A program made the translations under genes and the position numbers. A model generated the notes under the pieces. That model worked only from the letters and a program-made list of their open reading frames with translations. It was not told the origin of the DNA and ran no database searches. Positions 966 through 40,882 of a DNA stretch of 64,000 nt are shown one piece after another (within the stretch, counting starts at the first letter, position 1; every line of letters begins with the position of its first letter). The stretch is from Escherichia phage LQ5: sequence record OR677401; one strand, written 5' to 3'.

Positions 966-1002
966 ATCAATAACGGAGGCTTCGGCCTCCTAATGAGGAA
1001 TT

Positions 1003-1200
1003 ATGTTAGGTTACCAAGCACGTGTAGTTGAAGAATACGACCAGTTGGTTCTTAAAATTACCGCACTAGAAACCTTTATTGAAGGTGGTGTTTTTGAAAC
1101 TCTTGATATCCGTCAACAAGGGTTACTGATTGCACAACTGGATGCGATGGGCGCTTATGCTCATTGTTTAGAGGTTCGTATTTCTTATTTCGGTGAGTAA
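1003..1200 (+). CDS. hypothetical small protein
   Basis: 65-aa ORF with SD-like GAGG 8 nt upstream, preceded by UUCG-tetraloop hairpin. Confidence 0.4.
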   Translation: MLGYQARVVEEYDQLVLKITALETFIEGGVFETLDIRQQGLLIAQLDAMGAYAHCLEVRISYFGE

Positions 1201-1501
1201 AATGATTAATTACCTGAATGTCGGTGAACGTGGTATCAAGATTTCTAATTTGCGTGGATTCCATAAAGCAGGTACTGTTTATTGTGCTAAGCTCGTTAAA
1301 CACCCGGGTGATGTTCATTACGCTTTTCTAGAATGCGATGAGGTGGTCGAAGGCGAATTTCCTTTAGCAGATTCTGATACTTTAGAACCCGACGACCGAA
1401 TTTATTACGGTGAACTTCATATTCGAGGCATTTATGGTGAAGACGAACCCGGGACTACTCCGATTGGCAGCGATGCCGACATTTACCCTGAAGACATCTG
1501 A
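1193..1501 (+). CDS. hypothetical protein
   Basis: 102-aa ORF, start overlaps upstream stop (coupled). Confidence 0.4.
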   Translation: MSKMINYLNVGERGIKISNLRGFHKAGTVYCAKLVKHPGDVHYAFLECDEVVEGEFPLADSDTLEPDDRIYYGELHIRGIYGEDEPGTTPIGSDADIYPEDI

Positions 1502-1514
1502 TTTAACAGGCGAA

Positions 1515-1991
1515 ATGAAGGTTAAGATTAAGGATACCGTACTGTATTCCTTAAGCCAAGACCCGTCCCAAGATAAGAAAGAAGTATTGACTCGGTGTGT
1601 CATTGCAACGTATGCCGAGTATATGGTTGCTGATTGGTTGAAAGGATATGTTAATAGTGGTCTAGAAGACCATGACGACCCTTATACCTATGCATGGGAT
1701 GTTTTAGCTCATCCTATGTACTGTGGACTACGCGTAGAGGTCAAGACCCATCAGTCGGATTCTAAGTGGATTTCCTGCACTACAGGATACTCCGGTGACT
1801 TCCCTTATGGAACAGGGATTAACCTGGGGCCGCTCTTGAATCATAAAGTTGCAGATTGTATAATTATATTCGACACTTCGGTAAATGAGGCAGGCGATGT
1901 CCTGTTCACTCCTAAGTTCTCTGGTGACAGAGAAGCCATCACAAAGCTAGTCCGTAAGAGCAATTACAACGGCTGGTATCTCGCCTTATAA
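1515..1991 (+). CDS. hypothetical protein (occupies the denB/ndd.x position of T4; identity not established)
   Basis: Track ORF 1410..1991; start moved to internal ATG (M36) to avoid 90-nt overlap; start uncertain. Confidence 0.35.
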   Translation: MKVKIKDTVLYSLSQDPSQDKKEVLTRCVIATYAEYMVADWLKGYVNSGLEDHDDPYTYAWDVLAHPMYCGLRVEVKTHQSDSKWISCTTGYSGDFPYGTGINLGPLLNHKVADCIIIFDTSVNEAGDVLFTPKFSGDREAITKLVRKSNYNGWYLAL

Positions 1992-2066
1992 ATTTTTAAA
2001 ATAGTATTTACATACGCCATGGATGGTGTTACTATCTTCCTATCAACTACACGAGAGGAAAATATT

Positions 2067-2294
2067 ATGACTTCTATTACTTATGTTAAAGCAATCAATC
2101 GTAAAATCGAAGAATATAAATTTGAGAATGGTAAAGTGTTTCACAAGCTTACCAATATTAAAACGGGTAATGTTCAAAAAGATTGGACTGAAGTTACCAC
2201 TCCTACAGTAATTAATCTTTACGGTTCTATCGAAAAGTATTGGGAATTTTTAGTAGGTTGGGCTAAACAGCATCCAAAACATTCTGTTGCTTAA
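2067..2294 (+). CDS. hypothetical small protein
   Basis: Track ORF 2019..2294; ATG at 2067 follows GAGG SD of the repeated leader cassette. Confidence 0.45.
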   Translation: MTSITYVKAINRKIEEYKFENGKVFHKLTNIKTGNVQKDWTEVTTPTVINLYGSIEKYWEFLVGWAKQHPKHSVA

Positions 2295-2350
2295 GTTATA
2301 ATGCCACGGATGGTGTTACTATCTTCCTATCAACTAATGAGGAGAACAAA

Positions 2351-2617
2351 ATGGATATCAAATTATATTACGCTAAACACAAAGTTACAGGTATGGTTGT
2401 TGCCGCTATGTATGATGCATCAGGTGAAGGTGATGATGTTACTACAGAGTTATCTCTTTCTGAATGTAAATTTCTCCGTCCCTTAATCGCATCAAAGGAA
2501 GATTTAGAAAAGCTTATTGATGGAAAACTGGATAATGTTGACGGCATAGATATTCTTTATGACCTCCGCACGGCATTGTACAGGGGATTGATTGAGATAA
2601 AAGAGGTGGTGTTTTGA
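2351..2617 (+). CDS. hypothetical small protein
   Basis: 88-aa ORF directly after second copy of leader cassette (GAGGAG-N6-ATG). Confidence 0.45.
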   Translation: MDIKLYYAKHKVTGMVVAAMYDASGEGDDVTTELSLSECKFLRPLIASKEDLEKLIDGKLDNVDGIDILYDLRTALYRGLIEIKEVVF

Positions 2618-2762
2618 GTAGCAAAACGTGGTGCCTTATTTGGATGGCCTGTATCCCAGTGATTTGCGTGTGTTTTAGTTTATTGTTGTGGAAATTGGCA
2701 TAAATCAGTATACATCTCCATTAATCATGATATTATAGACCTATCAACTAATGGAGATGATT

Positions 2763-2873
2763 ATGAAAAACTTACTTAAAGCAATTTGGAACATGTTTGT
2801 GTTGTTAATGGTATTGAGCATTTTCCCAATCGTTTTTATGATTGACCATGTACGTGTATTCTTTAACTTCTGA
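2763..2873 (+). CDS. putative 36-aa hydrophobic membrane peptide
   Basis: ATG after GGAGATG SD in third leader cassette; translation MKNLLKAIWNMFVLLMVLSIFPIVFMIDHVRVFFNF is a single TM helix; below the 60-aa track cutoff. Confidence 0.3.
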   Translation: MKNLLKAIWNMFVLLMVLSIFPIVFMIDHVRVFFNF

Positions 2874-2883
2874 GGAAAATATT

Positions 2884-3096
2884 ATGAAACTTTTTAAAGA
2901 TGTGGTAGTCGGCGAGAGCTTTGTATTGCATAATGGCCAACAACTGATTCGCATTTCTCCTTTGCAAGTTGGGACCGAATTACAACCTGTTAATGCTACA
3001 GACCTTTATGATTCAACTAAGCGTTTTTGTGTAGGCCCTAGTGTGCAATGCCTTACTGTTGATGAACTGATGGCTATTTCTGTTGACGCTGAATAA
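2884..3096 (+). CDS. hypothetical small protein
   Basis: Track ORF 2842..3096; ATG at 2884 preceded by TGAGGAAAATATT SD motif. Confidence 0.4.
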   Translation: MKLFKDVVVGESFVLHNGQQLIRISPLQVGTELQPVNATDLYDSTKRFCVGPSVQCLTVDELMAISVDAE

Positions 3097-3106
3097 GGAA
3101 AATATT

Positions 3107-3451
3107 ATGTCTAAATTATTTTTTGGTAATCGCAACATTATGTTCTTTAAACAGATTAGCATGTCAGAAACATTTGATTTAAGTTATTCGGGCGACACAA
3201 AAGCTGTTAACCTTAAAAATTTAGCGTCTGCAGAATTTGCATTCTATCAGGACCCTGAAACTGGTTTCTACAAATTTATTAAGTTCCGCATGACTATGGA
3301 CCGCGATTATCGTGACGTTTATTATACAAGTTATGAAAGTGCTATCAATGCAATTCGCGAAGCTTATGGATTGGATTCGTTGTCTCTTGACCGCCTGTAT
3401 AATGCAAGCCTTTACACCAGCGGATTTATTTTAGAACAACTTCAAAAATAG
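3107..3451 (+). CDS. hypothetical protein
   Basis: Track ORF 3083..3451; ATG at 3107 preceded by AAGGAAAATATT. Confidence 0.4.
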   Translation: MSKLFFGNRNIMFFKQISMSETFDLSYSGDTKAVNLKNLASAEFAFYQDPETGFYKFIKFRMTMDRDYRDVYYTSYESAINAIREAYGLDSLSLDRLYNASLYTSGFILEQLQK

Positions 3452-3528: not shown

Positions 3529-3978
3529 ATGAATACTTATATGACTCGCCGTAACGTTCTGTCTGCTGGTGCTACTACTGTTGCTTATGTTAAGAACGGT
3601 GAATACCAAAATGGTAAACCTTCTAAAGAAATCTCTGCTCAGCCAGGCTTCTACTTCTTTGTTAAAGGTGGAGCTGATTCTCGTGTCGTAGCGGCTCGTT
3701 TTTATGTCGGTAATCAACGTTCGGCCCAAGGGCTCGACGGTATCGTGGCTAACATTCGTAAGAAACGTTCTCAATCAGCTCGCACTATGGCAGTGAACGG
3801 TGTTGTGTATGAAGTTCTTTATGTACCGGCTTCTAAGATGAAACCCCTGACTACAGGTTTTGGTAAGGGTCAAATTGCAATGGCTTTCACTCGTAATCAT
3901 AGTTCCGACCTCCAGACACTGGAAGAAATGAACCGTATGTTGGCTGATAACTTTAAATTCATCCTGCAGGCTTACTAA
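3529..3978 (+). CDS. ndd: Ndd nucleoid-disruption protein
   Basis: 149 aa; C-terminus ...[11 protein letters not shown]...[24 protein letters not shown]...[20 protein letters not shown] matches T4 Ndd as I recall it. Confidence 0.85.
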
Positions 3979-4055
3979 TGAGTAATTTCCATAACGAGCA
4001 TGTGATGCAGTTCTATCGTAACAATCTTAAAACTAAAGGCGTCTTCGGACGCTAA
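3978..4055 (+). CDS. stp: Stp peptide (suppressor of three-prime phosphatase; modulator of the EcoprrI/PrrC anticodon-nuclease system)
   Basis: 25-aa [28 protein letters not shown] overlapping the ndd stop (TAATG); essentially identical to T4 Stp. Confidence 0.8.
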
Positions 4056-4065
4056 TGAGGAAAAT

Positions 4066-4227
4066 ATGGTTATCCTAGTTTTTATTGAACTTATTATGGC
4101 TATAGTCTGTTCAGTTTGCTTCTTTTTAGGTGTGTGGGCCCCTGGTCCGATATTCTTAAGTTTTCTGCTTATTGGTTGGGTTCTTTCTACTTTTGTCGGT
4201 TTACTTAAGACGATTAAAAATGATTAA
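4066..4227 (+). CDS. small membrane protein, Ac-like by position
   Basis: 53-aa hydrophobic ORF (MVILVFIELIMAIVCSVCFFLGVW...) after hairpin + TAATGAGGAAAATATG; T4 has the 51-aa membrane protein Ac here. Confidence 0.4.
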   Translation: MVILVFIELIMAIVCSVCFFLGVWAPGPIFLSFLLIGWVLSTFVGLLKTIKND

Positions 4228-5693: not shown

Positions 5694-5793
5694 GCCTTGG
5701 AGTCGAGTTCTTGTTACTCTGTATCTTTGCTGTTATTCTGGGCCTGGCGACAGGCTTAGCTATAGGTTTAATAGCAGCTCACTTTAAAAAGTA
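5690..5793 (+). CDS. putative 34-aa hydrophobic peptide
   Basis: ATG overlapping gp52 stop; MSLGVEFLLLCIFAVILGLATGLAIGLIAAHFKK; followed by terminator; exact ends +/-1 nt. Confidence 0.3.
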
Positions 5794-5816
5794 AGGAACC
5801 TTCGGGTTCCTTTTTT
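5794..5816 (+). terminator. rho-independent terminator (GGAACC-UUCG-GGUUCC + U7)
   Basis: perfect 6-bp GC-rich stem, UUCG tetraloop, T-run. Confidence 0.7.
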
Positions 5817-5833
5817 GGTTTAGTGAAAAAAGT

Positions 5834-5862
5834 GTTTACTTCTGCTTTAAACATGATACTAT
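5834..5862 (+). promoter_or_regulatory. T4-type early promoter (-35 GTTTAC, 17-nt spacer, TGATACTAT extended -10)
   Basis: gtttac at 5834-5839, tactat at 5857-5862; a TGCTTTA MotA-box-like heptamer also lies inside. Confidence 0.6.
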
Positions 5863-6550: not shown

Positions 6551-6880
6551 ATGAACAAGCTGAATATTGTTAATGAACTTCGTCGTTGTGCAGAACCTAC
6601 TCAAGAAGGTTGGGATATTTGGTACCATGGCGCTTATCTTGGAACTATTGTTAAGATTAAAGCCGGTAAATACCTAATCATCCGTGGTGGTACTGAAGCT
6701 TCTATGGGAATTCGTAAAAACTTTATGGCGGCAATCAGCACCTTTGTCCCAGCGGCTTATGAAGTCTATAAAGCGGACTACAAAGAATACCAAGAATCAC
6801 AACCGGTTATCCGTTCAATTGGTGTTAATAAAGCTCAACAGAAATCTTTATGGCAGCGTATTAAAGGATGGTTCAAATGA
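6551..6880 (+). CDS. hypothetical protein (motA-asiA interval)
   Basis: 109-aa ORF with SD GAGGAAATTATT-ATG. Confidence 0.45.
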   Translation: MNKLNIVNELRRCAEPTQEGWDIWYHGAYLGTIVKIKAGKYLIIRGGTEASMGIRKNFMAAISTFVPAAYEVYKADYKEYQESQPVIRSIGVNKAQQKSLWQRIKGWFK

Positions 6881-7215
6881 TTCCGATGGAACTTAACTGG
6901 GACGGTGAAGGTCATTCCCTTAAATTGATTGAAGAACAACGTAATGATTGGGACGAGCGTGTAGCTTTGGTAAGCGGTATTAAGAAAATTTACCAACTCG
7001 ATCTCCAGATTGATAACGTTTATCTTGAATTTGGTATGCAGTTATTACGATTTCTTGAGATTATTTTTATTGAAAAGGTAAATATAACTTCGTATGGCGA
7101 GGGCCAAACAGTTAATATTAAATTATCATCCTATTATAAAGGCGATTTAATTGAAACTGCCACCAAAATTCAAGAATTTGCTAAAGATAACGGCCGTAAG
7201 GTGATTTTCAAATGA
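6877..7215 (+). CDS. hypothetical protein
   Basis: ATG overlapping upstream stop (ATGA); track ORF 6868..7215. Confidence 0.45.
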
Positions 7216-7700
7216 ATCTATTAAAAGGTAAAGCATTATCCTTTAAAGACCGTATGGCTTTATTAGATAAAGCTCTTTCTCGCGAGACTCCTGAAAGTCT
7301 AGCAGCTAAATTACAGGCCTATGGTGATTACACCGAATATACAGAAGAGGATGTTTTAGAAGAGGTTCCTGAAATCTGTTGGCAAGTGGCCCATTGGTGT
7401 GAAGACCAAAAATTCCAGCGTCGAATTGTGTGTGCTGCAAACCGTTTTAAGTTAAAAGATGGTGGAACTCTGGTTATTCCTGCGACACGTCATTACTCTA
7501 AAGATATGGGTGCGGTTATCAAGGCAGTTGAAGATAAATTGGTAACACGATTTGTCTGTGATGATGACCAAGGCTTTGTCGACCAATATGGTAATTATTG
7601 GACTCGCGAAGAAGCAATGATTATTGCGACTTATGCTAATCAAGTTCGTATTGAACGTGGTGGCAGTGAAAAAGAACTTTACTCTGAGGACCTTTACTAA
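7212..7700 (+). CDS. hypothetical protein
   Basis: 162-aa ORF, ATGA overlap with upstream gene. Confidence 0.45.
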
Positions 7701-7981
7701 TGAATCTTAAACAACTCCAGATTGATGCAATCGAAGCCCATATTAATCATGTTAAACGTCTTAATGTCATGGTGGAAGACAACTGGGGAACTTATGTCAA
7801 CCAACCGGCTTGGGATGCCTTAGACCACGAATATATAAAGAATATTAGTTCTAAGACAATCCATGGTAATATGGAAGGGTTGAAGCCGTTCCTACGTGAT
7901 ATGTATATTGCAACTAATAAAGAAATTATCAGCTCTCTTGAATATCAATTAAGGAAATTACGTGAACAATCTGGTAGCTAA
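7700..7981 (+). CDS. hypothetical protein
   Basis: 93-aa ORF, TAATG overlap with upstream gene. Confidence 0.45.
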   Translation: MNLKQLQIDAIEAHINHVKRLNVMVEDNWGTYVNQPAWDALDHEYIKNISSKTIHGNMEGLKPFLRDMYIATNKEIISSLEYQLRKLREQSGS

Positions 7982-8070
7982 GCACGATTTCAATAAGGCT
8001 TCTGTCCATAAGGACAAGAAGAAAAATCTTAAAGAGTCTAAACGTAAGCAGAAACATAAGGGTAAAGGCT

Positions 8071-8226
8071 ATGAGTCATAACTTAGAGAATACAGTAACA
8101 GGCATGCGTACACGTGAGCAGGAGGGCTTTGAGGAATTCCTGGGAGCTGATTTTAAGTTCCAGGAACCAATAGAAGAGATGTATCAGGAATATGTTAAAA
8201 AGAACGAAGAACATGTTTACAATCCC
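8071..8226 (+). CDS. possible 51-aa acidic small protein
   Basis: ATG after AAGG; MSHNLENTVTGMRTREQEGFEEFLGADFKFQEPIEEMYQEYVKKNEEHVYNP; overlaps the asiA promoter at its 3' end. Confidence 0.25.
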
Positions 8227-8243
8227 TAAGGATATGTTAGTAT
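8215..8243 (+). promoter_or_regulatory. T4-type early promoter upstream of asiA
   Basis: gtttac 8215-8220, 17-nt spacer, tagtat -10. Confidence 0.55.
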
Positions 8244-34766: not shown

Positions 34767-34767
<1 letters not shown>

Positions 34768-34964
34768 TGAATAATATCGAAAAGATTTTTCGTACAATCG
34801 AAGAAATTGAAAAACGTAAATGCTTTTTCTTCGGCGTGTGGCCTTTAACTGATGGACGCATTGGCCTGGATGTTATGGACTATAAAGATGAAGACAAGGT
34901 CGATGGTGGTATTTTTAAATCCGCTCCTGAACTCCTTGCCTTCTTGGAAGAACATTATGTATAA
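34767..34964 (+). CDS. hypothetical small protein
   Basis: Track ORF 34737..34964; ATG overlapping the pseT stop (TAATG). Confidence 0.4.
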
Positions 34965-35172
34965 CAAACACCATGAAGTTGAAGAAGAAGCTTATAAAGA
35001 GCTTCAGAAACTGGTAGGTCTGAATATGTCTCCTGCCCTCATTAACTCACTAGCAGCCCTTCGTAATGACCTCAATGAACGTTACAAAGGCGAGTACTAT
35101 GTTGAGTTCGTTCCTCTGACTGAAGTCGTTGACAGGTTTATTGTTAACGTGAAGGTCCATACAGTACACTGA
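34957..35172 (+). CDS. hypothetical small protein
   Basis: Track ORF 34852..35172; internal ATG (MYNKHHEVEEE...) overlaps upstream stop. Confidence 0.4.
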   Translation: MYNKHHEVEEEAYKELQKLVGLNMSPALINSLAALRNDLNERYKGEYYVEFVPLTEVVDRFIVNVKVHTVH

Positions 35173-35179
35173 GGTTATT

Positions 35180-35458
35180 ATGTTCCCTACTTATTCTGAA
35201 ATTGTTAAAACCGTTTTTAGTCAGATTGTATCTGATTACCTATACGAACCCGTCGACACGTCGACTGAACTAAAAGTGCACGGTCGCTTGTCTGCTATTC
35301 TGGAAATCATGTTCCCGGATGCGGTTGATGCAATCACTGTTCAACTCACGCCTGGGGCAGCATTTGCAATTGTTCCATTTAAAATTGATAATCACATTTT
35401 GGCTATTTCATGCAAAATGGACTTCCAGAAACAAACGGTAGTTGTCGAAGCAATTTAA
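35180..35458 (+). CDS. hypothetical protein
   Basis: 92-aa ORF with GAGGTTATT-ATG. Confidence 0.45.
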   Translation: MFPTYSEIVKTVFSQIVSDYLYEPVDTSTELKVHGRLSAILEIMFPDAVDAITVQLTPGAAFAIVPFKIDNHILAISCKMDFQKQTVVVEAI

Positions 35459-35520
35459 GTGTTTACTTTCACCAAGGACGGTGATATGATGACCTTACCG
35501 AAACAAATGAGGAAATCGAA

Positions 35521-36075
35521 ATGAGCCAGTTCTTTGAAGAGCGTAAGTTTTATAAGTTCGTCGGTGAATACACTAAAAACAAATTCACTAATAACGGTGC
35601 TTACGGCCTCAATACAGCTTTTGCCAAGTATGTAGGTATGAACCCGTTTGAAGTTGAAATTGATTACCATAACGGGAAGCCACGTGTAAGCCGAATTCGT
35701 GTATACGATGAGTTGATGTTTGTTGACCTGAGCAAAATCACAGGTAATCCCGACGATGCAACTAGTGTTCTTTTTAATTCAGTAGGCGCCTTTGCCCATG
35801 AATTCGAATACTTTATTGAAGTAGTACGTCCACTGGCTACTACGAGTATTGCTGTAAAGCCGGAACCTAAGCCAGTAAAAGCTACAGCCGATTGGAAAGT
35901 GCTTATTGTTAAAAATGGTAAGATTGAAGTTCATTCTCGCCATAACACAAAGGAACAAGCCGATCGTCAGGCCGAAGAGCTTTTGACCAGCTCGTTCCAA
36001 CAAGTGTGTTATATTGTTAAAGGCGATGTTACCCAAGCTACCACTACCAAACAACTTAAGTTGGAGACCATCTAA
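35521..36075 (+). CDS. hypothetical protein (cd.x region)
   Basis: 184-aa ORF with GAGGAAATCGAA-ATG. Confidence 0.5.
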   Translation: MSQFFEERKFYKFVGEYTKNKFTNNGAYGLNTAFAKYVGMNPFEVEIDYHNGKPRVSRIRVYDELMFVDLSKITGNPDDATSVLFNSVGAFAHEFEYFIEVVRPLATTSIAVKPEPKPVKATADWKVLIVKNGKIEVHSRHNTKEQADRQAEELLTSSFQQVCYIVKGDVTQATTTKQLKLETI

Positions 36076-36311
36076 TGCTGAGCGAACAACCTATTACTGT
36101 AGAGCAGTTCCACGTTAAAGTTAAAGAATTTGCTCAAGCCCTGATTAATAAGGTTTCTGTACGTTTTCCTGACGCAACTCTGCGAGTAATCCAGGAATCA
36201 CCGCGCGCGGTATTGGTTATCGTTAATCCTAAAAATGGCGACCAAATTACCCAGTTGAAACTCGGTTCAGATGGTTTGGTCGAAGCGCAGAGGGTGTATA
36301 TTGATGCTTAA
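36075..36311 (+). CDS. hypothetical small protein
   Basis: 78-aa ORF, TAATG overlap. Confidence 0.45.
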   Translation: MLSEQPITVEQFHVKVKEFAQALINKVSVRFPDATLRVIQESPRAVLVIVNPKNGDQITQLKLGSDGLVEAQRVYIDA

Positions 36312-36642
36312 TTTAAAACTAGCAGTTAATGCCACCTTACAATCTGACGAAGACGGAGACCATCGAGGTCTCTCTGAAAAGGCTACTCAGTACATCAAAG
36401 ACCTTTTTAAACTGAGTGAAGATTTCCAAAGCATCCATACTTCAACATATGATGCTGTGCTGGCTACTGTTCTTCCGGTTGAAATTGGTGATCGAATTCC
36501 GGCAGCGGTATTTTTCGATAAACAAAAACGCTTCCCAGACGGTTATGGTATATTAACCTCACGTGTGAAATCTATCACTAAACTTCGTACCGATTTATAT
36601 CGTGTCGAAACCAATAATACAGCTTATCTAGTGGTGATGTAA
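36304..36642 (+). CDS. hypothetical protein
   Basis: Track ORF 36271..36642; ATG at 36304 overlaps upstream stop. Confidence 0.45.
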   Translation: MLNLKLAVNATLQSDEDGDHRGLSEKATQYIKDLFKLSEDFQSIHTSTYDAVLATVLPVEIGDRIPAAVFFDKQKRFPDGYGILTSRVKSITKLRTDLYRVETNNTAYLVVM

Positions 36643-37187
36643 TGAAAGCAAGCACATATCTTCAGATTGCATATCTGATTTCTCAAGAATCAAAATGTTG
36701 TTCATGGAAAGTGGGTGCGGTTATCGAAAAGAATGGTCGCATTATCTCTACAGGCTATAATGGTTCACCATCCGGTGGTGTTAACTGTTGTGACCACGCT
36801 GTGGAACAAGACTGGACCCGTGTTGTGTATGACCCAGCGCGGATGTCGCATAAATCTGTTCTTCTTAAAGAACACCGCATGGCTCACGCTGCATGGTCAT
36901 CTAAAAATGAAATCCATGCCGAACTGAATGCTATTTTGTTTGCAGCTCGTACCGGAAGTTCTATTGATGGCGCTACGATGTACGTGACGTTATCTCCGTG
37001 CGCTGATTGTGCTAAGTCTATTGCGCAGTCCGGAATTAAAACATTGGTTTATGCTGAGCTCTATGACCGAAATCCTGAAGGTTGGGACGATATCCTCCGT
37101 GAATCAGGCATCGAAGTTATCCAGTATAATCGTACAGGTCTCCGTTCTTTGAACTGGGAATCAATTCAAAACTATTGCGGTGAATAA
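36642..37187 (+). CDS. cd: dCMP deaminase
   Basis: 181 aa; cytidine/dCMP deaminase zinc motifs HAELNA and SPCADCA. Confidence 0.9.
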   Translation: MKASTYLQIAYLISQESKCCSWKVGAVIEKNGRIISTGYNGSPSGGVNCCDHAVEQDWTRVVYDPARMSHKSVLLKEHRMAHAAWSSKNEIHAELNAILFAARTGSSIDGATMYVTLSPCADCAKSIAQSGIKTLVYAELYDRNPEGWDDILRESGIEVIQYNRTGLRSLNWESIQNYCGE

Positions 37188-37492
37188 TGAATATTTTATT
37201 TGAAAAACCTAAACAAGTGGTTACTGTTGATTACACAGATACATTTATTGATGCTCTTCTCCAAAAAGGTATCAAATCTATTAAAGTAGGTCCACTTTAT
37301 GTTATTGAACAGCTTAAAGGCAATTCTACTGGCGAAATTTCGACTCATTCTACTAGTGATATCGAATATGTTATTGACCAATTGGTAAATGTAAACCCAG
37401 AATTGGTATTAGTCCGTGAAGTTCGTAAAGAAACTCGTGGCGGCGAAACCAAGTATATTGTCCGCATTGATTATATAAAAATCGAAGGCTAA
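37187..37492 (+). CDS. hypothetical protein
   Basis: 101-aa ORF, ATGA overlap with cd. Confidence 0.45.
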   Translation: MNILFEKPKQVVTVDYTDTFIDALLQKGIKSIKVGPLYVIEQLKGNSTGEISTHSTSDIEYVIDQLVNVNPELVLVREVRKETRGGETKYIVRIDYIKIEG

Positions 37493-37515
37493 GCATCCTA
37501 ATTGAAGGAAACAAA

Positions 37516-37749
37516 ATGAAATTTCGTTTAGTTAAGTTTTCAGGTCTGAACTCAAAAGGTGAAAACCTGATAGCTTATTCAGTAGAATATAAAAAGTACT
37601 TTTTCTCTCGTTGGAAATCGTACTATAAATCCGAGTGGGTTCGCGCTGAAATGAAATATAAAACGGTGCCTATTCTTGATAATTGCCATAGCCTATTAAG
37701 AGCTCTAAAAGAGCGTAATGCAACCACTATCAAAACTATTCTGGAATAA
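37516..37749 (+). CDS. hypothetical small protein
   Basis: 77-aa ORF with GGAAACAAA-ATG. Confidence 0.45.
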   Translation: MKFRLVKFSGLNSKGENLIAYSVEYKKYFFSRWKSYYKSEWVRAEMKYKTVPILDNCHSLLRALKERNATTIKTILE

Positions 37750-37751
37750 TT

Positions 37752-38051
37752 ATGATTTTAACCGAACAAGAAACTATTCGTCTCCGTGAAAAAGTCAAGA
37801 CTATTTTGTCTGTTGGTTTTCACGAAGTCCTGTTTGAAAAAGCTGATGGCAGCGTTCGTCGTATGACTTGCACTCGTGACTTAGACCTGCTTCCATATAA
37901 AGAAGTCCAGGCCCCTGGCCCAGAAGCTAATAAAGAACCTGTTAATTATATCAGAGTATTTGATACCAAGGTTAATGACTGGCGCTCATTCCGTTTCGAT
38001 AAGCTGGTTTCCGTTAATGGGCTTCAGACTGAAACTCTGCTTGTCCTGTAA
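37752..38051 (+). CDS. hypothetical protein
   Basis: 99-aa ORF. Confidence 0.45.
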   Translation: MILTEQETIRLREKVKTILSVGFHEVLFEKADGSVRRMTCTRDLDLLPYKEVQAPGPEANKEPVNYIRVFDTKVNDWRSFRFDKLVSVNGLQTETLLVL

Positions 38052-38109
38052 TATGCTTTAAGAATAGCGTGTTATTATTAATCTATCAACAAAACAATAT
38101 GGATTAAAT

Positions 38110-39257: not shown

Positions 39258-39282
39258 GGGACTCTTCGGAGTCCCATTTTTG
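39258..39282 (+). terminator. rho-independent terminator
   Basis: GGGACUC-UUCG-GAGUCCC + AUUUUUG. Confidence 0.75.
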
Positions 39283-39303
39283 TTTCTAAATCTTTAAAAA
39301 AGG

Positions 39304-39332
39304 GTGTACATCTCCGGTAGGCATGATACTAT
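39304..39332 (+). promoter_or_regulatory. early promoter (GTGTAC -35 variant, TGATACTAT -10)
   Basis: 17-nt spacer; followed by shared leader ...accaaataatac.aaaacaaactggagaataaaatg. Confidence 0.5.
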
Positions 39333-39373
39333 AGACATGTACCAAATAATACTAAAACAAACTGGAGAATAAA

Positions 39374-39706
39374 ATGAAAACTGTAAATCTGAATGCATCT
39401 GTTAAAGCTAAATGTTTCAACGGTGAATATCAAGAAACCATGTGGGTCCTGACTGCAGTTGAAGGTGATATCATCGAAGTTGAAACAACTGAAGGTATGG
39501 GTACTGATTTTACATTCACCATCGAGCTTCACAACTTCTTTACAGGTTGGATTTATGAACTGAAAACTGTAATTACTGGTCGTATTGAAGAAAACAAAAA
39601 TGGTGAATTCTATTATGTTAATGCCCGTACACGTGCTGAACGTCTGATTGCTCAGATGAAAAAAGTTGGTAAACTTGATATGAAAAATTGGAATGTTGTG
39701 AAATAA
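39374..39706 (+). CDS. hypothetical protein (30.x island)
   Basis: 110-aa ORF with GGAGAATAAA-ATG. Confidence 0.45.
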   Translation: MKTVNLNASVKAKCFNGEYQETMWVLTAVEGDIIEVETTEGMGTDFTFTIELHNFFTGWIYELKTVITGRIEENKNGEFYYVNARTRAERLIAQMKKVGKLDMKNWNVVK

Positions 39707-39709
39707 ATG

Positions 39710-39738
39710 TTTTACTTTGGTACAGGTTGTGTTATTAT
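39710..39738 (+). promoter_or_regulatory. early promoter with inverted repeat (GGTACAGG/CCTGTACC) bracketing -10 TATTAT
   Basis: ttttac -35-like, TGTTATTAT extended -10; leader duplicated from 39333-39373. Confidence 0.5.
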
Positions 39739-39779
39739 AGACCTGTACCAAATAATACGAAAACAAACTGGAGAATAAA

Positions 39780-40145
39780 ATGAACTACATCAACTTCGAA
39801 CGTAAATATGTTTCTAACGGTATCGCTGGTTCTTCTGAAGTTATTTGCCTGTGGAAACACAACAACGGCGCGGTGTGCGAAATCGAACAGTGCATGACTC
39901 CTAACTACGTTTATATGCGCTTTGAAAATGGTATTACGGTTTCAATCACATTGGAAGGTTCTACTTTTAAAATCGCTTTAGATGATGATTTCCGTCAACG
40001 TGATTTAGGTACCCATCCTTGCTGGAACGGTGTTAATCGTAAGCTTCTGGTTAAAACTTGGATTCGTCACATCCTGAGCAACCGAGCTAAACCTGAACAC
40101 CTGGAAGCAATCTTTGATGTAGTTCTGAACGAATTCGACATCTAA
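39780..40145 (+). CDS. hypothetical protein (30.x island)
   Basis: 121-aa ORF with GGAGAATAAA-ATG. Confidence 0.45.
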   Translation: MNYINFERKYVSNGIAGSSEVICLWKHNNGAVCEIEQCMTPNYVYMRFENGITVSITLEGSTFKIALDDDFRQRDLGTHPCWNGVNRKLLVKTWIRHILSNRAKPEHLEAIFDVVLNEFDI

Positions 40146-40186
40146 TCTTAAAAATGGAGGCTTCGGCCTCCTTTGAGGAAAATATT

Positions 40187-40474
40187 ATGTTTATGACCAC
40201 TTATTTTGATACTCGTAAAAATTTCTGTGAAGTTGTTTTCTCTAAAGCAGGTAAAGATGTTCCTGCCGACAAACAACCTACTCGTGAATCTATTAAGGCT
40301 TATGCCGATGTTGTATGCCCGGTAGAATTCCGTACTGTTAATGGTCGTGATACCCTAGCAATCACTAAGCTAAACCATGATATCAATATCGACCCAAGTG
40401 TCGCCCGTGAAGTCAATACCTCTGACATCTATGGTGGTAATGTTAAATCACATGGCTTTCAGATGAGGTTCTAA
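40187..40474 (+). CDS. hypothetical protein
   Basis: Track ORF 40154..40474; ATG after hairpin + TTTGAGGAAAATATT. Confidence 0.45.
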   Translation: MFMTTYFDTRKNFCEVVFSKAGKDVPADKQPTRESIKAYADVVCPVEFRTVNGRDTLAITKLNHDINIDPSVAREVNTSDIYGGNVKSHGFQMRF

Positions 40475-40668
40475 TGCAACTATTCTTATCACAAACTGTT
40501 CAGCTAAAAGGTGTAGGTATTCCTGGAATGATTTCAAAGGTTCTACCTGCTTTTAAATTAGGTAATGTTACTATTAAAGAAGCCTACACCGTCTTATGGG
40601 TCGATGGAACTGAAGACGTTCGCATGGGCGGTGAACTGTCTGTAATCAAATGTTTAAAGCGAGGATAA
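40474..40668 (+). CDS. hypothetical small protein
   Basis: 64-aa ORF, coupled start. Confidence 0.4.
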   Translation: MQLFLSQTVQLKGVGIPGMISKVLPAFKLGNVTIKEAYTVLWVDGTEDVRMGGELSVIKCLKRG

Positions 40669-40669
40669 T

Positions 40670-40882
40670 ATGTTTAAGAAATTGATTCAGAAATTATTAG
40701 GTACGGAAATGGTCGAAGTGACTTATCGTGTAACTGATTTATCTCCTGTGCATCCACAAGATGAACCATATACTAAAACAATTAAAATGCTGAAATCTGA
40801 TGGCGGATTATCTATTGAAGACCGTCTACCTGGTTATGGTCATTGGGCTGATGTCGAAATTATAAGTGTCAAAGATGTCTGA
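40670..40882 (+). CDS. hypothetical small protein
   Basis: 70-aa ORF with GAGGATAATATG. Confidence 0.4.
   Translation: MFKKLIQKLLGTEMVEVTYRVTDLSPVHPQDEPYTKTIKMLKSDGGLSIEDRLPGYGHWADVEIISVKDV

Follow-up and report, generated by a model that had tools for sequence, protein, structure and literature searches.

The DNA analysed here is a 64,000-nucleotide (nt) stretch of Escherichia phage LQ5 (sequence record OR677401; the window), in which four gene-dense islands, at positions 1003–3451, 6551–8229, 34767–38051 and 39374–40882, occupy, in a T4-like genome, the rIIB–ndd, motA–asiA, pseT–cd–31 and 30.x regions. Over its full length, island 1 shares 98.4% identity with Escherichia phage QL01 and, with one indel, 96–98.6% identity with phages Bp7, WG01, MX01 and PSD9, all five of which belong to the genus Dhakavirus (Straboviridae); judged by this identity, the window is from a Dhakavirus close to QL01. 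In QL01 and Bp7 the annotated order is rIIB, denB.1, one hypothetical gene, denB, several more hypotheticals, ndd, a pair of small membrane genes, gene 52 and motA, which confirms the region names given in a first-pass annotation, which had described the islands as packed with small, unassignable open reading frames (ORFs) and as the most plausible hiding place for an undescribed host-takeover or anti-defence system. The gene set used here comprises 29 genes (9, 5, 10 and 5 in islands 1–4, respectively). We consider it highly probable that the four stretches represent hyperplastic regions of the classical kind known from T4-like phages, composed of arrays of independent, mostly single-gene cassettes and not of one system.

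In a local BLASTP comparison with every annotated protein of the two syntenic T4 regions, complemented by tblastn for the tiny proteins of T4, orthologues in T4 were identified for 21 of the 29 island genes. These are DenB.1 (55% identity), DenB (72%), Ndd.6 (44%), Ndd.4 (61%) and Ndd.1 (51%) in island 1; Arn.4 (78%), Arn.3 (71%), Arn.2 (38%) and, weakly, AsiA.1 in island 2; Cd.4, Cd.3, Cd.2, Cd.1, cd, 31.2 and 31.1 in island 3; and 30.8 (78%), 30.7 (92%), 30.6 (83%), 30.5 (68%) and 30.4 (46%) in island 4. No counterpart was found in the syntenic T4 regions for g2, g4, g5, g8 and the genes at 6877–7215, 34957–35172, 35521–36075 and 37187–37492. Conversely, T4 Arn, Arn.1, Ac, MotA.1 and Ndd.2/2a/3/5 have no homologue in the window; for Arn, the anti-McrBC DNA mimic, blastp and tblastn gave zero matches anywhere in it. 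A Pfam or PHROG family was found for every island gene except g4. Beyond these families, an NCBIfam scan of ten unknown proteins returned noise only, sequence searches of the PDB with g1, g2 and g8 and with family profiles for DUF7418, Ndd.1, g4 and Arn.3 returned no match below E = 1, and PADLOC scans matched Arn.3 alone, plus a sub-threshold WYL match for 31.1. Rfam and ARAGORN found no RNA genes (tRNA or Rfam RNA) in the whole window. One GenBank record, PQ341120, labels homologues of island proteins as YopX, MafI, COesterase, DUF2829 and KTSC; Pfam recovered none of these labels at E ≤ 5.

The first gene of island 1, g1 (1003–1200, plus strand), encodes a stand-alone protein of 65 amino acids (aa) that consists of a single short domain. 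Its residues 4–61 align to positions 3–60 of the 61-position Pfam profile PF21825 (E = 2.3e-19; 69.5 bits, where the cut-off is 24.8), a family named 'crAss001_48' in the Pfam copy used and labelled 'Sequestin', under the same accession, on related metagenomic contigs. The alignment with T4 DenB.1 shows 55% identity over 64 residues without gaps. T4 DenB.1 is the protein studied elsewhere as Y16O, because the Y16O cloning primers encode MLAYQARVK... and ...LEKRIAQFK, which are both ends of translated T4 DenB.1. Of 13 PF21825 proteins tested previously, ten inhibited type I Thoeris; a purified Sequestin binds 3′cADPR and releases the signal intact, and Sequestins are predicted to form antiparallel homodimers with two interface pockets (bioRxiv 10.1101/2025.07.12.664507). 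In the same study, E12, Q47 and R61 of SequestinA (E11, Q45 and R59 of SequestinB) were essential and R8/R7 dispensable, and the 64-aa T4 Y16O rendered phage SBSphiJ Thoeris-resistant on knock-in. An independent crystal structure, described in a 2026 preprint, shows a Sequestin domain as the predicted antiparallel dimer. All four pocket residues are present in g1 (R7, E11, Q45 and R59). Among 14 distinct orthologues, taken from genomes and contigs of T4-like phages and including T4 Y16O, the glutamate, the glutamine and the second arginine are invariant and R7 is retained in 13, as mutagenesis of SequestinA and SequestinB predicts.

Profile match, alignment and pocket residues together identify g1 as a member of the Sequestin family, orthologous to T4 DenB.1/Y16O. 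On the model of the tested T4 homologue, g1 would form an antiparallel homodimer, the two interface pockets of which bind 3′cADPR; capture of this signal would prevent activation of ThsA, the type I Thoeris effector, and the phage should in this way blunt type I Thoeris. Two observations weigh against a simple transfer of function, namely that the identity of g1 to the tested protein is only 55%, and that 3 of the 13 PF21825 proteins assayed failed to inhibit Thoeris (bioRxiv 10.1101/2025.07.12.664507). In Mosigvirus AV110 (locus L011, 28,000–31,600), genes for DUF7418 and DenB follow rIIB without a Sequestin gene, and the anti-Thoeris sponge is therefore not universal in the Tevenvirinae.

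The second gene, g2 (1202–1501, plus strand), begins 1 nt after g1 and overlaps denB (1473–1991, plus strand) by 29 nt. It encodes an acidic protein of 99 aa (pI 4.4) that belongs to DUF7418 (PF24193), a family absent from T4. The motif C28-x5-H34-x4-H39-x5-C45 (window 1283–1336) is invariant in 18 of 18 aligned DUF7418 members, is followed by a variable acidic tail and is possibly a zinc site; the AF2 model built from the 18-sequence alignment, with a pLDDT of 43, was unusable. The product of denB, endonuclease IV, is 172 aa long, matches T4 DenB over 172 aa and falls in phrog_1360 (E = 3.3e-85). DenB cleaves single-stranded DNA containing dC.

Downstream of denB, g4 (2067–2294, plus strand) is an ORFan of rare occurrence within a cassette of 287 bp. 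Its product is a basic protein of 75 aa (pI 9.4), and its GC content is 31.6%, compared with 39.5% for the window. It has no match in Pfam, PHROG, NCBIfam or PADLOC, occurs in five distinct phages (six records) among 50,697 phage records and forms one cluster among 5.8 billion clustered proteins. When 1.84 billion representatives were searched exhaustively with HMMER, two real relatives at 54–57% identity emerged, both in metagenomic T4-like contigs and both in the same denB–ndd interval; three other matches were rejected as repeat-protein artefacts. The cassette is bordered by a 34-nt direct repeat on the plus strand, the left copy of which (2016–2049) contains an extended −10 box and 5′ untranslated region (5′UTR), and the right copy of which (2303–2336; 33 of 34 positions identical) supplies the −10 box and 5′UTR of g5. 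The gene is present in QL01-type phages, whereas in Bp7 and IME08 there is a single copy of the repeat, denB runs straight into g5 and g4 is absent; the indel of 287 bp therefore corresponds precisely to g4 and one repeat. Two database ORFs that start at an ATG within the early promoter (ATGGATGGTGTTACTAT...) carry spurious N-terminal extensions: g5 of Bp7 (locus L002, 4018–4329) is given 103 instead of 88 aa, and g4 in cluster P0001 91 instead of 75 aa.

The slot after denB is filled by different genes in VR7, EAWsc9 and the contigs of loci L007–L009 and, in other relatives, by unrelated ones, and a 24-locus comparison found g2, denB and g8 in two or three allele classes although the genomes are otherwise near-identical. 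At 30.8, in island 4, a 55-nt direct repeat (39324–39378 and 39730–39784; 93% identical) that comprises a −10 box, 5′UTR, Shine–Dalgarno sequence and ATGAA flanks the gene. Such arrangements recall the promoter-early stem-loop (PeSL) cassettes, mobile regulatory elements described in T4-type phages (Arbiol 2010, Comeau 2014; PMC2839356, PMC4122927), which place repeated sigma-70-like early promoters at the borders of ORFans that differ between close relatives in a hyperplastic region, as is also seen at g4. Complete motifs of this type, with stem-loop and promoter, are present before motA (5793–5862; terminator hairpin AAGGAACCTTCGGGTTCCTT at 5793–5812 with a T-run, followed directly by the early promoter TTTACT-16-TACTAT) and, on the plus strand, before 30.8 (39258–39335; terminator hairpin GGGACTCTTCGGAGTCCC at 39258–39275 with a T-run, then an early promoter). 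We infer that gene content has turned over by recombination between short repeated early-promoter/5′UTR sequences (PeSL-type shuffling), with the g4 cassette as the most distinct example. Weighing against this mechanism, the segment duplicated around g4 is a −10 box and 5′UTR with no stem-loop 5′ of the g4 promoter, so that the cassette lacks one half of the canonical PeSL, and a 34-nt duplication could equally be the footprint of illegitimate recombination. No Dhakavirus appears to have been among the phage pairs analysed in PMC2839356 and PMC4122927.

Island 2 starts 14 nt after motA with a 109-aa gene (6551–6880, plus strand), a long form of Arn.4 that is 78% identical to T4 Arn.4 over the 68 aa of the latter. 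Its product is identical to that of the coding sequence adjoining MotA in AV110 at 87 of 109 positions (80%), without gaps. A screen of 45 early proteins of Mosigvirus AV110, published as a 2026 preprint, identified Gp94 (109 aa, 12.74 kDa; encoded next to the MotA-like gp95), an elongasome-modulating peptide (Emp) and toxin that inhibits growth, produces lemon-shaped cells and binds MreB, MreC and MreD; it is also conserved in Dhakavirus among other genera (10.64898/2026.09.14.751387). The AV110 coding sequence is Gp94, because it adjoins MotA and its length (109 aa) and computed mass (12,739 Da) agree with the published values. Length, position and end-to-end identity make the gene at 6551–6880 the orthologue of Emp, and its product would accordingly be expected to bind MreB, MreC and MreD and to disturb lateral cell-wall synthesis. 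Next comes a 112-aa gene of 34.5% GC (6877–7215, plus strand; phrog_14178), an insertion between Arn.4 and Arn.3 that is specific to Dhakavirus and Gaprivervirus. The island ends with orthologues of Arn.2 (7700–7981, plus strand; 93 aa, 38% identical to T4) and, by a weak match in the T4 comparison, of AsiA.1 (8071–8229, plus strand; 52 aa, acidic). This 'arn' cluster (6551–8229) is thus without a homologue of Arn or Arn.1.

Between these genes lies arn.3 (7212–7700, plus strand), whose product of 162 aa is 71% identical to T4 Arn.3 and has a conserved C-terminal domain. Residues 9–40 (window 7212–7310) match positions 2–33 of the 77-position PADLOC model PD-T4-9_B (E = 1.8e-9, 36 bits), as does the copy in AV110 (E = 1.2e-8) and, much more weakly, that in T4 (E = 0.0026). 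PD-T4-9_B is taken to be CmdA because it is the second gene of CmdTAC (PD-T4-9) by gene order. CmdA consists of two N-terminal helices followed by a disordered, ClpXP-targeted tail that ends in AA. The C-terminus of Arn.3 is a conserved domain of about 110 aa ending ...YSEDLY, not an Ala-Ala chaperone-addiction (ChAD) tail, and its neighbours are the phrog_14178 gene and Arn.2, with neither an ADP-ribosyltransferase toxin nor a SecB-like chaperone. In phage records the N-terminus of Arn.3 was found in T4-like phages and Vibrio phages only; a 33.8-kb match, at first sight of P2 size, proved to be an incomplete Mosigvirus record.

Expression signals were sought with a T4-type early-promoter pattern (TTTACW, 16–18 nt, TAYWAT), which matched 12 times on the plus strand and twice on the minus strand. 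Matches precede g4 (2007), Ndd.4 (2709), ndd (3452), motA (5835), pseT (33500) and 30.7 (39711), and further sites were seen by eye before 35521, 30.8 and asiA. The site in front of g4 (2007–2035, plus strand) reads TTTACA-17-TACTAT with a TG extension; an early-promoter-like site before Ndd.4 (2709–2736, plus strand) carries the 5′UTR core CCTATCAACTA common to the g4 and g5 promoters; and that before 35521, in island 3 (about 35462–35490, plus strand), reads GTTTAC-N17-TATGAT. In the pattern scan g1–g2–denB had no promoter of its own, and island 2 has no internal early promoter, the homologous cluster of T2 being reported as a middle transcript. The earlier statement that each gene lies behind an early promoter therefore holds for g4, Ndd.4 and 30.7 and, by eye, for 35521 and 30.8, and fails for g1–g2–denB and island 2. 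The translational coupling that had been proposed is real, as seen in the g1/g2/denB spacing and in eight ATGA or TAATG junctions (6877, 7212, 7700, 34767, 36075, 36642, 37187 and 40474). The island cassettes would be expressed in the early or middle period, in one direction and often with coupled translation. A GC-rich UUCG hairpin between rIIB and g1 (975–990, plus strand) is palindromic, with an RNA folding energy of −12.2 kcal/mol and no U-tract on its 3′ side on the plus strand. Before gene 31, a look-alike of a MotA-box middle promoter (38052–38090) consists of ATGCTTTA with TATTAT about 12 nt further on.

The remainder of island 1, all on the plus strand, begins with g5 (2351–2617; 88 aa, acidic, phrog_2390), which has no T4 orthologue. 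Overlapping its stop with a TTG start (TTGA) is an unannotated, hydrophobic 29-aa homologue of Ndd.6 (2614–2703; 44% identity over 25 aa in tblastn, E = 5e-7). Then follow g6 (2763–2873), the T4 Ndd.4 orthologue, a membrane peptide of 36 aa (phrog_3098; GRAVY 1.43), and g7 (2884–3096), the Ndd.1 orthologue of 70 aa (phrog_2183). For Ndd.1, an assignment to Tad2 (DUF2829, PF11195), carried as a label in PQ341120 alone, was rejected: four members gave no Pfam match at E ≤ 5, and the family profile gave no PDB match. The last gene, g8 (3107–3451; 114 aa, phrog_10053), exists in two allele classes, with at least 92% identity as opposed to about 55% (loci L005, L015–L017, L019 and L020), between flanking genes that are 97–100% identical, which points to allelic replacement within the island. 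A KTSC label for g8, again found only in PQ341120, was likewise rejected (no Pfam match at E ≤ 5 in ten members and no fold match), and the predicted structure of g8, a moderate model, matched no fold. Just outside the island, and unannotated in QL01, stp (3978–4055, plus strand) overlaps the ndd stop (TAATG) and encodes 25 aa, all 25 identical to T4 Stp. T4 Stp is a 26-aa peptide that activates the PrrC anticodon nuclease. At the site of T4 ac (acridine sensitivity), 4066–4227 encodes an unrelated membrane protein of 53 aa (phrog_9347), and the adjoining 52.1 is 96% identical to that of T4.

Island 3 (34767–38051, plus strand) contains ten genes, seven of them the T4 orthologues Cd.4 (34767–34964), Cd.3/DUF7355 (35180–35458), Cd.2/DUF7320 (36075–36311), Cd.1 (36271 or 36301 to 36642), cd, encoding dCMP deaminase (36642–37187), 31.2 (37516–37749) and 31.1/WYL_2 SH3 (37752–38051), all on the plus strand. 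Interspersed on the same strand are a phrog_3609 gene (34957–35172), a 184-aa phrog_5804 gene (35521–36075) and a phrog_12166 gene (37187–37492). The N-terminal 40 or so residues of the 35521–36075 product show a weak match to PHROGs that carry the annotation goF mRNA-metabolism modulator (E = 4e-5), and distant relatives of this protein (about 30% identity) occur in many Tequatroviruses. In island 4 (39374–40882, plus strand) the five genes 30.8, 30.7, 30.6, 30.5 and 30.4 are all T4 orthologues.

That chance reading frames or pseudogenes in decay within a non-coding spacer account for the small ORFs is so improbable as to be almost negligible. Some are indeed very short (29–36 aa), one has a TTG start and annotated starts disagree, as in the Bp7 and P0001 ORFs that begin within a promoter. 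Nevertheless, the islands are, as first described, packed with ORFs (29–184 aa; coding fractions of 0.91, 0.95, 0.97 and 0.92 in islands 1–4 for the gene set as settled) that lie on the plus strand only, mostly with a GAGG- or GGAG-type Shine–Dalgarno sequence 6–10 nt 5′ of the start. Their proteins are conserved in other T4-like phages at 29% to 100% identity across genera, down to the 29-aa Ndd.6-like ORF, which is kept in 23 of the 24 compared loci, and all but that of g4 fall into families. The ORF list underlying the first-pass annotation lacked this gene and stp, and the verdict of that annotation that the ORFs could not be assigned was too broad, with denB and cd inside the islands. The annotation had named as refutation that all ORFs prove to be T4 orthologues of known, unrelated function; what we find is that about 21 of 29 are orthologues and that most have no known role (Arn.2/3, Cd.1–4, 31.1/31.2, 30.4–30.8 and Ndd.1/4/6), so that undescribed factors could still be among them, and the idea of an undescribed system is neither confirmed nor refuted for these genes. 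A June 2026 preprint still lists arn.2–arn.4 as 'function unknown'. The four islands yielded no evidence for a multi-gene system of an undescribed kind. It is possible, although we would not favour it, that individual lineage-specific genes (g4, g5, g8, 6877–7215, 34957, 35521 and 37187) are undescribed anti-defence or host-takeover factors acting against particular E. coli strains. The patchy distribution and allele replacement of such cassettes in near-identical phages would fit this, as would the own early promoter and low GC of g4, and transposon screens of T-even accessory regions offer precedents in nrdC.1, which acts against Septu, and bas37_0203, which acts against Druantia III, along with Vs.3, which is TadIV-1. 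Against it, no homology, fold or context directs these cassettes to a specific target, and many T4 accessory genes have no detectable phenotype; the recently described T4 anti-defence genes TadIV-1/Vs.3, nrdC.1 and Alt lie outside these islands.

Two further proposals concern particular neighbours or genes. The tight coupling of g1, g2 and denB, retained in distant metagenomic T4-like contigs with the order Sequestin–DUF7418–EndoIV at 35–54% identity, could mean joint rather than independent action and speaks against independent cassettes. Together with the invariant DUF7418 motif, it invites the idea of one functional module, for example with a small zinc-binding adaptor or inhibitor tuning the nuclease, or with a second anti-signalling activity. 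A parallel exists in the Acb4-Sequestin/Bes1 (RuvC-like)/Bes2 island of N4-like phages, and in Pseudomonas N4-like phages the neighbours of Sequestin, one a nuclease-fold protein, are also anti-signalling factors (2026 preprint). We judge such a module very unlikely in the present phage. DUF7418 is missing from T4 and several Tequatrovirus-like contigs that possess DenB.1 and DenB, and Sequestin from AV110, which has DUF7418 and DenB, so the three genes are separable; moreover, DenB already has an established independent role, and T4 Y16O is active alone in a heterologous phage (bioRxiv 10.1101/2025.07.12.664507). For Arn.3 of Dhaka- and Mosigviruses, the PADLOC matches make conceivable a degron-less mimic of CmdA that would neutralize CmdT-type mRNA ADP-ribosyltransferase toxins or, alternatively, a regulator of the phage's own ADP-ribosyltransferases. 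As a mimic, its N-terminal two-helix segment would bind the ADP-ribosyltransferase CmdT as the CmdT-binding end of CmdA does, and CmdT would then stay neutralized after infection-triggered degradation of CmdA, because a folded C-terminal domain replaces the ClpXP-degraded ChAD tail. The architecture of CmdA, the position of arn.3 within the arn anti-restriction cluster and the diverged N-terminus of Arn.3 in T4, the phage with which CmdTAC was discovered and studied, are in keeping with this proposal, which we still rate as unlikely. CmdTAC of ECOR22 restricts 10 of 12 BASEL Tevenvirinae, a panel that probably includes well-matching Arn.3 forms; T4 escape mutants all map to alt.-3 and none to arn.3; searches for bacterial relatives of the Arn.3 N-terminus yielded no confirmed match in 185,579 species genomes and none in plasmids; Arn.3 has neither the tail nor the operon context of CmdA; and a 30-residue helical match may be a shared generic module.

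Read as arrays of independent cassettes, the islands bear out the premise that hyperplastic regions carry host-takeover and anti-defence genes, and they do so only through families already described: the Sequestin g1, the Emp orthologue and denB within them, and ndd and stp adjoining island 1. The functions of Sequestin and Emp have been published (2025–2026), and the activities that we expect of them in this phage are extrapolated from those studies; the remaining genes, roughly 24, are conserved but uncharacterized. A gene-by-gene map thereby replaces a 'dark-matter' flag. The predicted blunting of Thoeris, the predicted Emp-type inhibitor of MreBCD and the absence of an Arn anti-McrBC protein bear on host range and on the choice of phages for therapy, and the g4 cassette is a recent and clear-cut illustration of the gain of single genes by T4-like phages via repeated promoter sequences. 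The short list of candidates for further work comprises g2, g4, g5, g8, 6877–7215 and Arn.3, with one concrete idea, Arn.3 against CmdTAC. If true, it would describe a phage counter to a toxin–antitoxin–chaperone defence in which toxin-binding helices are fused to a stable domain, and the weak match of T4 Arn.3 would explain the sensitivity of T4 to CmdTAC.

Among known systems, CmdA of CmdTAC (PD-T4-9) can be compared with Arn.3: about 30 N-terminal residues of Arn.3 match the start of its PADLOC model, whereas Arn.3 is phage-encoded, has a C-terminal domain of about 110 aa in place of a disordered tail and AA degron, and lacks a toxin or SecB-like neighbour. T4 Y16O/DenB.1, the T-even Sequestin that has been characterized, is close to g1, with a similar length (64 and 65 aa), the same site directly after rIIB and the pocket residues kept; it differs in that g1 is translationally coupled to a DUF7418 gene missing in T4, and the ligand specificity (3′cADPR or other signals) may differ. 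Emp of AV110 shares with the window gene its 109-aa length, its end-to-end identity and its place as the first gene after motA, in a phage of another genus; in the window, the 112-aa lineage-specific gene sits between the Emp orthologue and Arn.3, and T4's own Arn.4 is annotated at 68 aa only, which corresponds to the C-terminal two-thirds of the long form. Compared with the rIIB–ndd, motA–asiA, pseT–cd–31 and 30.x accessory regions of T4 as a whole, the window has the additional genes g2, g4, g5, g8, 6877–7215, 34957, 35521 and 37187 and is without homologues of Arn, Arn.1, Ac, MotA.1 and Ndd.2/2a/3/5, while gene order and orientation are shared and 21 of the 29 genes are orthologous.

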